This document shows positions 3 to 5,000 of a stretch of 26,356 nucleotides of DNA, piece by piece (the first letter of the stretch is position 1; each line of letters starts with the position of its first letter). This DNA is from Chloroflexota bacterium (GTDB lineage: Bacteria > Chloroflexota > Limnocylindria > Limnocylindrales > CSP1-4), in NCBI GenBank assembly GCA_013698385.1, contig JACCVB010000076.1:1-26356 (forward strand), given 5' to 3'. The notes below the pieces were generated by a model, which worked only from the letters and a program-made list of their open reading frames with translations, searched no databases and had not been told where the DNA came from. Both the position numbers and the translations under genes were made by a program.

Positions 3-887
3 GAGCTCGGCGAGACGCAGAACGCAATCGCGGATCGACTTGGGGTCACACGACCCCAGGTGTCGCGACTCCTCAAACGCGCCCGCGCCCAGGGGATCGT
101 CGAGATCCGGATCATCGACAAGTCGACGGTCGAGTCGCCTGCAGCCGATGCCCTCAGGGCACGGTTCGACATGGAGGCGGTCCATCTTGCCCCGGCGGTC
201 GTGGGACCGGACGACCTGACCCGCCGGATGGTCGGTCGGGCCGCCTCGCAGATCCTTCGATCGGTGATCCGCGAGGGAGCGAACGTAGGCATCGGGGACG
301 GGGCCTCGGTCTCGGCCGTGGCGGACGCCCTGGACGAGTCGCTGCAGCCGGTCGCCGCGACGATCGTGCCGCTCGCGGGCGGCTACTGGGCGCCCGGTCC
401 GGAACGAGAACCGTTCCGTCGCGTCGCCGAGGCGTTCGGGGCCCAGGCGCACGGGCTGATGGCGCCTGGCCTGGTGGACGACCCGGCGACGAAGCGTGCC
501 CTGGAGACCCACGCCGGCGTGAAGGCCGTCACCGAACTGTGGCGGCGGCTGGACGTGGCCATCTTCGGCATCGGCGGTCGGGCCTGGAGCGCGGCCTCGG
601 TGGGGGAACGCGTGGAGCAGCAGCTGGAGGTAGCCGGCGCGGTGGGTGAGATCCTGATCGCCCCGTTCGACCTCGATGGTCGCTTCGTGTGCGATGACCT
701 GCGCGAGCGTGCGATCGCCTTCGATGCGCGGCGCCTCGGTGCCGTCCCGGTCGCGATCGGCGTCGGCTCGGGCGCGAGCAAGGTCAGACCGATCCTCGGA
801 GCGCTGCGGGCCGGCGTGATGCACACCCTGGTCACGGACGTCGTCACGGCCGAAGCCGTCGTCGCGCTCGACGAGGCGTCCCGGTGA
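3..887 (+). CDS. SorC/DeoR-family sugar-binding transcriptional regulator (5' end lies outside the window)
   Basis: The frame is open from base 3: ELGETQNAIADRLGVTRPQVSRLLKRARAQGIVEIRI matches the SorC-type HTH. The C-terminal effector domain has GIGDGASV, AIFGIGG, GAVGEI and GALRAGVMHTLVTD. The ORF-track start at 60 is internal. TGA overlaps the next GTG (GTGA). Confidence 0.9.
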   Translation, partial: ELGETQNAIADRLGVTRPQVSRLLKRARAQGIVEIRIIDKSTVESPAADALRARFDMEAVHLAPAVVGPDDLTRRMVGRAASQILRSVIREGANVGIGDGASVSAVADALDESLQPVAATIVPLAGGYWAPGPEREPFRRVAEAFGAQAHGLMAPGLVDDPATKRALETHAGVKAVTELWRRLDVAIFGIGGRAWSAASVGERVEQQLEVAGAVGEILIAPFDLDGRFVCDDLRERAIAFDARRLGAVPVAIGVGSGASKVRPILGALRAGVMHTLVTDVVTAEAVVALDEASR

Positions 888-2353
888 AGGTTCCGGCCAT
901 CCTGAGCATCGATCTCGGCGCGACCGAGGTGAAGGCAGGCCTCGTCGGCCTTGACGGACAGCTCGTGGCGATCGCGCGCGCTGGATATCCGCTGGCCGTC
1001 GGCCACGGACCGGGCTGGGCGGAGCAGGACCCCGGTGCCTGGTGGTCCGCGGTGGTCAGCGCTGTCCGCGCGCTTCGACCGGTCGAGGCCGTGACCGGCG
1101 GCGTGAGCGACCCCGTGGAGATCCTGGCGATCGGCGTCGACGGCCACGGGCCGACCCTCGTCGCGGTGGATGCGCGGGGCGAGGCCACGAGGCCGGCGAT
1201 CACCTTTCTTGACACGCGGGCGACCCGCGAGGCGGACGACCTGGCTGCGGCGACGGGACTCGTCGGCTGGGCCCTTGGCCCGTTGCCCGCGGCGCTCTGG
1301 CTGGAACGTCACGAACCGGCCGTCGCGACGGCCACGGCGTGGTACCTGACCACCTGGGAGTGGCTGGCATTCCGACTCACGGGCGTGGCCGTCGCGCCAT
1401 TGGCACCGGGCGAGATCGTCCCGGACGCGACGGCCGCCCAGGCGGCTACCGGTCTTCGGATGGACCGTCGTCCTCCGACCGGCGCGATGGGGGAGCCCGT
1501 CGGGACCCTGACCGAGGCGGCGGCCGACGCGCTCGGGCTCCGTGCCGGCATCCCGGTCGCGGGCGGGACCAACGACGCCTTTGCGAGCTATCTCGGGGCC
1601 GGTCTGCTCAAGGCCGGTGATGCGTACGACCCGGGCGGTTCGGCCGGGGGCTTCGGTGTTTACTGGGATGCGCCGGTCGCCGTCCCGGGTGCGTTCGTCG
1701 GGCCGGCACCGCTGGCCGGGCGCTACAGCGTGGGCGCGGCGATGGCCGCCACCGGCAGGGCGTTGGACTGGTTCCGCGAGTCGGTCGTCGGCTCGGGGAT
1801 GACCACGGAACGACTCCTCGAGGAAGCCGCTGCCACTCCGCCCGGCGCGGACGGGCTCATCTTCCTGCCCTACCTCGCCGGGGAGCGCTCGCCGATCTGG
1901 GACCCGGCGGCCACGGGCGCCTTCGTCGGGCTGACCCTGGCCCACGGCCGAGGGTACCTGGCCCGCGCGATCATGGAGGCGAGCGCGCTGGCGATCCGCC
2001 ACGTCGCGACGCCGATGCTCGAGGCCGGCATCCGGGTGGACGCCATGCGGGTCTGCGGCGGTCCGGCCCGGAGCGAGGCCTGGAACCAGATCAAGGCCGA
2101 CGTGACCGGCTTCCCGGTCCTTGTCCCGCGCGTGCTCGAGACGGCCGTCCTTGGCTCGGCCATCCTCGGCTCGGTGGCGATCGGTTGCCACGCCGATACC
2201 GAAGCCGGCATCCGGGCCATGACCGGCATCAGCCGTCGGATCGAATCAAGGCCCGGATCGCGCGCCACGTACGACGCGACGTTCGAGGCGTATCGCGCGC
2301 TGTATCCCGCGATCGCGCCGATCCTGCGACCACTGAGCCGCGTGCCGGCATGA
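884..2353 (+). CDS. FGGY-family carbohydrate kinase (xylulokinase-like, divergent motifs)
   Basis: Motifs IDLGATEVKAG, EQDPGAWW, FLDTR, GGTND, FLPYLAGERSPIWDPAATGAFVGLT, ARAIMEA, CGGPARSEAWNQIKADVTG. Overlaps its neighbours by GTGA and ATGA. Confidence 0.88.
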   Translation: MKVPAILSIDLGATEVKAGLVGLDGQLVAIARAGYPLAVGHGPGWAEQDPGAWWSAVVSAVRALRPVEAVTGGVSDPVEILAIGVDGHGPTLVAVDARGEATRPAITFLDTRATREADDLAAATGLVGWALGPLPAALWLERHEPAVATATAWYLTTWEWLAFRLTGVAVAPLAPGEIVPDATAAQAATGLRMDRRPPTGAMGEPVGTLTEAAADALGLRAGIPVAGGTNDAFASYLGAGLLKAGDAYDPGGSAGGFGVYWDAPVAVPGAFVGPAPLAGRYSVGAAMAATGRALDWFRESVVGSGMTTERLLEEAAATPPGADGLIFLPYLAGERSPIWDPAATGAFVGLTLAHGRGYLARAIMEASALAIRHVATPMLEAGIRVDAMRVCGGPARSEAWNQIKADVTGFPVLVPRVLETAVLGSAILGSVAIGCHADTEAGIRAMTGISRRIESRPGSRATYDATFEAYRALYPAIAPILRPLSRVPA

Positions 2354-3923: not shown

Positions 3924-3947
3924 CCCCACCCAGTACCGGAGGTCCTC

Positions 3948-5000
3948 GTGTCATCGCCCGTCCGTGCTCTTGCCATCCTGCTCAGCCTCGGCCTGCTCGT
4001 CGCCGGGTGCGGTGGCGGAGCGGATAGGTCGGCCGCGCCCGCATCCGGCTCGTCGGCGGGGCCATCGGACGAAGCCAGCCCGAAGGCGGTCGAATTGACC
4101 GTCGGCCTGGGCTACATCCCGAGCGTCCAATTCGCCCCCTTCTACCTCGCCGATCAGCAGGGCTACTACAAGGAGGCGGGCCTCGAGGTCACGTTCCAGA
4201 ACAAGATCGACCCCGATCTCATCGCGCTCGTCGGCCAGGGATCGATCGACATCGGGCTGGCCGATGGCACGAGCGTGATCCCGGCGGTCAGCCAGGGCAT
4301 CCCGATCCGCTATGTCGCGACGGTGTACGGCCGCTTCCCGTCCATCGTGTACGCCAAGGCGAGCGCCGGCATCGCGCGCGCCGCGGACCTGGCCGGCAAG
4401 AAGCTCGGCATCCCCGGTCGATACGGCTCGTCCTGGATCATGCTGCAGGCCCTGCTCAAGTCCGCGAAGCTCAGTCCGGACGACCTGGAGATCGTGGAGT
4501 ATCCCGACTTCGGGCAGGGCGCCGCCCTCGCGGCCGGCGCGGTCGATGCGGCGACCGGCTTCGTCAACAACGAGCCGGTCCAGCTCGAACTGACCGGGGA
4601 GTCCGCGACCGTCCTCCGCATCGATGACGTCACGCCCCTTCCGGGCAACGGCCTGATCGTGGGCGCGGCCACGCTGGACACCAAGCGCGATGCCATCGCG
4701 GGGTTCGTGGCGGCGACGCTGCGGGCGATGGAGGAGATCAAGGCGGATCCGCAGGCCGGTCTGGACGCCGCCCTGGAGGCCGTGCCCGAACTGGCCAGCG
4801 CGCCAGAAGTCCAGACCGCCGTGCTCGCCGCGACGATCGAGACCTGGAGCGGGCCGGCCCAGGAGGCCAACGGGCTTGGCGCCATCGAGAAGGCCGACTG
4901 GACCGCCTCGATCGAGTACCTGACGTCCCTCGGCCTCGTGCCCAGGCCCGTCACCGTGGACGACATCGTTGATGTGGGCGTACTCCCGGATGGAGGTTAG
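3948..5000 (+). CDS. NMT1/THI5-like ABC substrate-binding lipoprotein, RibY-like
   Basis: Lipobox LVAG-C. Motifs YIPSVQFAPFY, RFP, GIPGRYG and NEPVQL resemble my recollection of Chloroflexus riboflavin-binding RibY. SD GGAGG at 3938-3942, 5 nt before GTG. Confidence 0.85.
   Translation: MSSPVRALAILLSLGLLVAGCGGGADRSAAPASGSSAGPSDEASPKAVELTVGLGYIPSVQFAPFYLADQQGYYKEAGLEVTFQNKIDPDLIALVGQGSIDIGLADGTSVIPAVSQGIPIRYVATVYGRFPSIVYAKASAGIARAADLAGKKLGIPGRYGSSWIMLQALLKSAKLSPDDLEIVEYPDFGQGAALAAGAVDAATGFVNNEPVQLELTGESATVLRIDDVTPLPGNGLIVGAATLDTKRDAIAGFVAATLRAMEEIKADPQAGLDAALEAVPELASAPEVQTAVLAATIETWSGPAQEANGLGAIEKADWTASIEYLTSLGLVPRPVTVDDIVDVGVLPDGG

Follow-up and report, generated by a model that had tools for sequence, protein, structure and literature searches.

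The window analysed here is the 26,356-nt stretch from position 1 to 26,356 of contig JACCVB010000076.1 of the Chloroflexota bacterium genome GCA_013698385.1 (Limnocylindrales, CSP1-4), a 2.1-Mb metagenome-assembled genome (MAG) of 78% completeness. Its first 5,000 nt hold a five-gene operon consisting of a SorC/DeoR-family regulator, an FGGY-family kinase, and the ATPase, permease and binding protein of an ATP-binding cassette (ABC) importer (Table 1). The genes are joined, in this order, by GTGA, ATGA and TTGA junctions, followed by a 24-nt gap with a GGAGG motif before ribY. This chain, already reported in a preliminary description of the stretch, is confirmed, and the gene order is conserved across relatives: it is kept in 25 of the 27 loci of the same genus (the other two stop at contig ends) and also in genera g7 and g9. 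The overlaps alone are weak evidence, because 4-nt overlaps are common in this genome (possible in ~199 of 501, or about 40%, of the close same-strand gene pairs, as counted with a rough gene caller of our own). The regulator is cut off at the window start; its start codon (position 6236) lies on contig C375, which shares 127 bp with the beginning of the window, and its full length is 309 aa. The genes found upstream of the operon are bioY and one for a GlcD-like FAD oxidase. In a soil contig (P0242, L361:2439-4826) the SorC and FGGY genes are called as a single 795-aa fusion, with the ATPase gene next.

Table 1. Genes of the operon, with their positions in the window and the basis of each assignment.
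Feature	Position	Strand	Basis
SorC/DeoR-family regulator	3..887	+	C-terminal 294 of 309 aa; PF04198 (E 1e-45); structure matches to SorC, DeoR and LsrR
FGGY-family kinase (separate Limnocylindria clade), a candidate for a non-orthologous riboflavin kinase	884..2353	+	Pfam, fold, tree
RibZ-type ABC ATPase (NitT/TauT group)	2350..3177	+	TauB/NrtD-like; directly after the FMN riboswitch in relatives
RibX permease, TTG start	3174..3923	+	48% to C. aurantiacus RibX (L101); SsuC/TauC-like
RibY, predicted flavin-binding lipoprotein (NMT1/THI5), Cys21 lipobox	3948..5000	+	PF09084; 34% to C. aurantiacus RibY

Judged by sequence comparison, the importer is a RibZXY orthologue, which is an ordinary result. 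In Chloroflexus aurantiacus, ribXY (Caur_0816-0817) rescues an Escherichia coli riboflavin auxotroph, and riboflavin binding and transport have been shown for that system only (PMC4418817). Locus L101 matches both published ribXY cloning primers exactly and is, thus, the tested system. The operon encodes a COG0600 permease and a COG0715/NMT1 binding protein, both orthologous to C. aurantiacus RibXY: RibY is a reciprocal best hit (34% identity, E 3.5e-45), RibX shares 48% identity, and a search of this genome with C. aurantiacus RibY returns the operon RibY as the single match. The 34% lies below the 38% starting cut-off of PMC4418817, and identity rises to 40% for the orthologues in L102 and L103, which bear a flavin mononucleotide (FMN) riboswitch, as do 15 of the 19 distant orthologous loci. 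Of 301 Chloroflexota genomes, 129 contain a strong match to the binding protein, and almost all of these have just one copy. In the RibY tree (this and the other trees are quick IQ-TREE searches with SH-aLRT support only) the operon protein nests among riboswitch-labelled Limnocylindria proteins (support 99), beside the C. aurantiacus RibY group. The group stands apart from ThiY labelled by thiamine pyrophosphate (TPP) riboswitches and from other NMT1 paralogues, with one long-branch outgroup unresolved. The TPP-labelled proteins of L422 and L423 show ~26% identity to the operon RibY and fall outside its group, so the importer is not of the ThiXYZ/THI5 kind. The preliminary description had called the importer RibY-like and proposed a phylogeny of the binding protein; orthology and tree both bear it out, since the protein sides with the RibY proteins under FMN riboswitch control and against ThiY and the remaining NMT1 paralogues.

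No riboflavin synthesis (rib) genes were found in this genome, and lumazine synthase (ribH) is present in none of 61 relatives and in 3 of 49, 0 of 7, and 0 of 55 genomes of the three families carrying the importer. Because of the RibXY orthology, the placement in the riboswitch-labelled group, and the missing lumazine synthase, the trio is best read as the riboflavin importer of a riboflavin auxotroph, a predicted function in which we place high confidence. Other possible flavin transport genes were seen in the comparison. In G456, where RibY was not found, an FMN riboswitch precedes the gene of a family-5 solute-binding protein (SBP5; L197:9519-11460), a candidate new flavin importer; SBP5 genes 48–57% identical to it accompany the kinase in L295, L299, L345, and L367. 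Streamlined f2 genomes have ribZXY immediately behind a gene for an FTR1 iron permease, without a riboswitch (L051:8587-9444). The cofD gene of F420 synthesis occurs in this genome (G000 C155:5800-6549) and in f2 (L051:17039-17986), and the FO synthase CofG in only one of 61 genomes of the order (G141, within its rib operon); the deazaflavin FO may need import, possibly via RibY.

The housekeeping enzyme that would convert the imported vitamin lacks its kinase part. The ribF gene of this genome (contig C190) encodes 253 aa, in which the FAD_syn domain is intact and the shortened C-terminus is without the PTxN motif and the catalytic Glu. A search for the flavokinase domain PF01687 was negative in g1, g3, g4, g5, g7, g8, g9, g15, and f2. 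This is not an assembly gap, because the truncated ribF, with FAD_syn kept and the kinase part shortened, is present at its normal place beside truB in g1, g3, g4, g5, g8, g9, g15, and f2. Archaeal RibK was likewise not found in the five genomes tested. The distribution of the two kinases is complementary: among the 85 RibY-bearing genomes of the class, 45 have the RibF kinase only, 38 the FGGY orthologue only, none has both, and two have neither (two of the 45, G407 and G439, are unpublished, and no result depends on them). In the ribF tree the loss of the kinase domain in g15 is independent of that in the f1 lineage and separate from the rest of the family to which g15 belongs, and the FGGY and RibY proteins of g15 nest inside f1, which indicates transfer. 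The kinase swap appears to have occurred about two independent times. The FGGY and RibY genes are unlinked yet co-occur in f2, g4, g169, and g174, and in G266 FGGY and ribZXY were lost together behind sorC. Genome G141 makes riboflavin and, hence, needs a riboflavin kinase; it is without the RibF kinase and carries the FGGY orthologue.

The operon kinase is a member of the FGGY family, with the FGGY_N and FGGY_C domains, the fold, and the catalytic aspartates. The predicted model shows a normal FGGY fold (pLDDT 90.8) with D10 and D231 kept, and the closest structure is 3IFR (about 32%). Together with the FGGY proteins of the 1.0–1.4-Mb f2 genomes it falls in a clade (support 99) with 44 sampled members, which the tree sets apart from the xylulokinase-like proteins and the other FGGY paralogues in the sample. 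The f2 protein is the sole match at E 1e-30 in those genomes, and its gene is syntenic after bioY, with no sugar genes and unlinked from ribZXY. A profile of the clade finds its members and the f71 sister clade with E values up to 4e-134, and other FGGY proteins from 5e-106. The enzyme does not classify as a XylB: it scores 226 bits vs the cut-off of 380 for TIGR01312 and has no Met-His signature, and G89-P90 is invariant in 44/44 clade members; it also falls below the models for FGGY pentulose kinase/D-ribulokinase (116 vs 409 bits for TIGR01315, and 139 vs 428 bits for the ribulokinase model). The known riboflavin kinase families PF01687 and PF01982 do not match, only the FGGY domains do. 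The specificity positions of glycerol kinase were taken from PMC3245297, and four of the five could be mapped. R83, E84, D245, and F270 correspond to G89, P90, D231, and G256, invariant in the clade, and two deletions of about 10 residues are located near the sugar site; W158 is invariant as well. The F270–G256 correspondence is presumptive, as it relies on motif spacing. The pocket would probably be open at the end farthest from the hydroxyl that is phosphorylated, leaving a place for the isoalloxazine ring.

Based on distribution, genomic context, and pocket residues, we infer that the FGGY enzyme acts as a non-orthologous riboflavin kinase and turns the imported riboflavin into FMN, a function that we consider rather likely. 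The operon would then serve salvage and activation of the vitamin. RibY would bind external riboflavin for import by RibX and RibZ, with the ligand assigned by orthology to the tested C. aurantiacus system. The FGGY enzyme would use ATP to phosphorylate the ribityl 5'-OH, yielding FMN and replacing the lost RibF kinase, and the remaining FMN-adenylyltransferase half of RibF (C190) would make FAD. The proposal draws on the FGGY/RibF-kinase complementarity, on the retention of the enzyme in streamlined f2, and on the occurrence of sister-clade genes in a rib operon and in clusters resembling flavin catabolism. The preliminary description is supported in part, the tie between the kinase and flavins that it suggested being borne out.

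The sister clade, of family f71, retains its RibF kinase. In G358 its FGGY gene overlaps ribD in an EamA-FGGY-ribD-ribE-ribBA-ribH operon; in two close homologues EamA-FGGY is kept and the rib genes are absent. Other f71 FGGY genes come after those of a class I aldolase and a Zn-dehydrogenase, in larger clusters that also contain P450, hydantoinase, isochorismatase, amidohydrolase, TPP enzyme, xanthine-oxidase-like, Rieske, and luciferase-like genes. These enzyme types match, by family only, the lumichrome pathway and the riboflavin monooxygenase of PMC12746152. The large clusters are found at L282, L264, L265, L280, L281, and L408, and a RibBA-flavin reductase fusion was also seen. An apparent second flavokinase copy near the catabolic cluster in G433 was rejected, being the housekeeping ribF beside truB. 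No strain is known with both halves of riboflavin breakdown together, and the C2'-C3' cleavage route is known without its enzymes (PMC12746152), for which finBCD have been proposed (PMC13492142).

Closer relatives (L295, L299, L367, and L399) have a longer module, SorC-dehydrogenase-FGGY-aldolase-SBP5, which in L295 is followed by an FMN riboswitch and ribZXY. The SorC of these modules is 44–50% and the FGGY 51–52% identical to the operon proteins, and they stand with a Zn-dehydrogenase and a class I aldolase. In L362 a related FGGY gene is joined with dehydrogenase and glycine-reductase-type genes. The riboflavin-induced fin neighbourhood of Clostridium scindens encodes a RibF (finB), a class I aldolase (finC), a Zn-dependent alcohol dehydrogenase (finD), a sugar-binding regulator (finE), and a reductase (finHI) (PMC13492142). 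The long modules contain the same kinds of genes with FGGY at the kinase position, so FGGY holds the slot of the riboflavin kinase in fin. The operon probably descends from a regulator-dehydrogenase-kinase-aldolase module that would have cleaved the ribityl chain, and whose kinase would have made the RibF kinase redundant. In such a module 5'-phosphorylation, 4'-oxidation, and aldol cleavage would yield triose phosphate and formylmethylflavin.

The regulator combines an N-terminal helix-turn-helix and PF04198, as typical for SorC/DeoR proteins, with a candidate operator at its own promoter. On C375, upstream of sorC, a TTGACA...GATGAT promoter is accompanied by a 23-nt tandem motif, the candidate operator (position 6204), which is kept before sorC in about 30 relatives and has one site in this genome. 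Strong SorC orthologues are limited to g1, g7, and g9. No FMN riboswitch was found in the window, the genome, or 60 relatives, nor any other Rfam RNA in the window, and a custom model of the FMN riboswitch found none in the g1, g7, g9, or f2 loci. The upstream inspection suggested earlier, for a dehydrogenase, a hydrolase, or an FMN riboswitch, was likewise negative for all three among the genes ahead of sorC. Elsewhere in this family and class, the riboswitch does stand upstream of the orthologues of other genera. It separates the FGGY gene from ribZ in g3, g15, g172, and others, and it precedes ribZ or ribY, with the kinase absent there, in f3, g4, and g6. In g4 and g169 it is also located between the permease gene and ribY, controlling the binding protein only (L127:7161-7331, L128:10575-10735, L364:2591-2758).

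We read the missing riboswitch as a secondary loss and the kinase-importer coupling as derived. As the riboswitch lies between kinase and ATPase genes in sister genera and is absent in the SorC-led g1, g7, and g9, a deletion of the leader put ribZXY under the promoter headed by sorC. Members of the SorC family typically act as repressors and are released by a sugar phosphate. Here, SorC would be an autorepressor that took over from the lost riboswitch, binding the tandem operator just downstream of the -10 box. That its effector is FMN is a tentative idea, about which we are somewhat doubtful.

Several observations weigh against a riboflavin kinase. All the genomes are MAGs, and they are kin rather than independent cases, so that the complementary pattern rests on about two events. 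In many genera the FGGY and RibY genes lie side by side, so linkage accounts for some of the cases in which both were lost. Modules of aldolase, dehydrogenase, FGGY, and SorC are common for ordinary sugars, and more distant kinase and aldolase relatives adjoin BMP-type ABC or phosphotransferase system genes. Finally, 15 genomes (nine of g5, and G290, G400, G425, G266, G428, and G210) are without the RibF kinase, FGGY, and RibY, which implies another route to FMN that could be shared more widely; of these, G290 needs some riboflavin kinase, as it has a rib operon. An importer search in the 15 gave weak ECF S-component matches, which also occur in g1, and BMP proteins in all genomes; no orthologue of the G456 SBP5 was found there.

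The 15 genomes living without either kinase would also agree with an importer that takes FMN (or FAD) directly, in which case FGGY would act on an unrelated sugar or polyol, as an old neighbour fused to ribZXY at the riboswitch deletion. There is a precedent in Listeria, where RibU imports FMN and FAD, and virulence persists in a mutant that cannot produce these two cofactors (PMC9060500), which also counts against a needed kinase. In many genomes, moreover, FGGY keeps a fixed place after bioY/GlcD while the downstream genes vary. However, direct import of FMN does not predict that FGGY and the RibF kinase never occur together, the RibY of the kinase-intact g6 nests among those of kinase-less genera, and G141 makes riboflavin and would still need a kinase. 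Nor would it explain why sister-clade genes sit in a rib operon and in flavin-catabolic surroundings, or why FGGY is retained in 1.1-Mb genomes, and we regard this explanation as unlikely.

Slightly less likely still is a kinase serving ribityl catabolism, acting on free ribitol or D-ribulose after lumichrome release, or on a 4'-keto flavin for aldol cleavage, with SorC sensing the product. The longer modules, with the same SorC and FGGY next to a Zn-dehydrogenase and a class I aldolase, fit it, as do the f71 clusters with their resemblance to lumichrome catabolism, and a C2'-C3' cleavage route is known, though without its enzymes (PMC12746152). Yet an aldolase orthologue was not found in this genome or in G026, G409, G037, G446, and G298 (the search of these relatives was without a positive control), about 40 genomes retain the kinase by itself, and its clade is distinct from the sampled xylulokinase-like and other FGGY paralogues. 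The missing riboflavin kinase would also stay unexplained. The pentitol catabolism suggested in the preliminary description is, thus, not upheld for this genome, in which no aldolase orthologue and no close dehydrogenase were found, while ribityl catabolism fits the longer ancestral modules (L295, L299, L367, L399, and f71). A nucleoside or nucleobase importer feeding purine degradation, as also suggested there, is very improbable: guaD, amidohydrolase, and xdh genes do come next in g1, g9, and g172, but the binding protein lies within the FMN-riboswitch-labelled RibY group, the trio is unlinked from guaD/xdh in f2, f3, g3, g4, and g15, and a separate small open reading frame (ORF), often with a 500-aa oxidoreductase gene, intervenes.

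In the window this ORF (5140-5328) encodes 62 aa with a CxC motif and is conserved (57–87%) before guaD in many relatives, often preceded by the 500-aa DAO-family oxidoreductase gene, which is absent here. The purine degradation genes at 5410-22431 comprise guanine deaminase, xanthine dehydrogenase, uricase, OHCU decarboxylase, HIU hydrolase, malate synthase, and a hydantoinase-like gene, and are linked to ribZXY in some genera only.

Returning to a riboflavin kinase of the FGGY fold, we give about an even chance to the combined picture. Most Limnocylindrales, including the streamlined freshwater Limnocylindrus, would make FMN via an FGGY-fold kinase derived from ribityl cleavage, a third unrelated family; a SorC protein sensing the ribityl phosphate of FMN would have replaced the riboswitch in three genera; and the sister clade would mark genes of C2'-C3' riboflavin breakdown, joined in one genome cluster to the lumichrome pathway. 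The synthesis of FMN is essential, and the operon kinase is a single-gene candidate for the missing riboflavin kinase. If true, it would be a new kind of riboflavin kinase; to our knowledge only two families are known, and a literature search found no FGGY riboflavin kinase. The lineage is common in soil and lake metagenomes, where the kinase-dead ribF would probably still be called bifunctional by automated pipelines. The operon would, in addition, be a case of riboswitch-to-protein regulatory replacement, and the sister clusters offer candidate genes for riboflavin catabolism by side-chain cleavage, a route whose enzymes have yet to be solved.

In comparison with known systems, the importer resembles C. 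aurantiacus RibXY(Z) in its orthologous permease and binding protein, its single copy across much of Chloroflexota, and the FMN riboswitch of most relatives; the operon differs in being without the riboswitch and fused behind SorC and FGGY, in a host without riboflavin synthesis and the RibF kinase domain. The regulator, FGGY kinase, and ABC importer architecture recalls the autoinducer-2 Lsr system with LsrR and LsrK, whereas the ABC importer here is of the NMT1 type, not the sugar type, and the operon proteins reach 87 vs 486 bits (LsrR cut-off) and 106 vs 528 bits (LsrK cut-off). With FGGY sugar kinases (XylB, RbtK, AraB, GntK, LsrK) the operon kinase shares the fold, the D10/D231 catalytic pair, and the ATP-binding motifs, but it falls below all NCBIfam cut-offs, shows G-P...G in place of M-H or R-E...F, and has the two deletions near the sugar site. 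The RibF C-terminal domain (PF01687) and the CTP-dependent archaeal RibK/RbkR (PF01982) catalyze the reaction proposed here, riboflavin to FMN, with folds unrelated to the actin-like FGGY fold, and RbkR already provides an example of rib genes controlled by a protein instead of a riboswitch (PMC5397151). The fin genes of C. scindens, compared by gene kind, correspond to the long Limnocylindria modules and L362; they differ in the kinase family, and the operon keeps only the regulator and the kinase of such a module and adds the importer.

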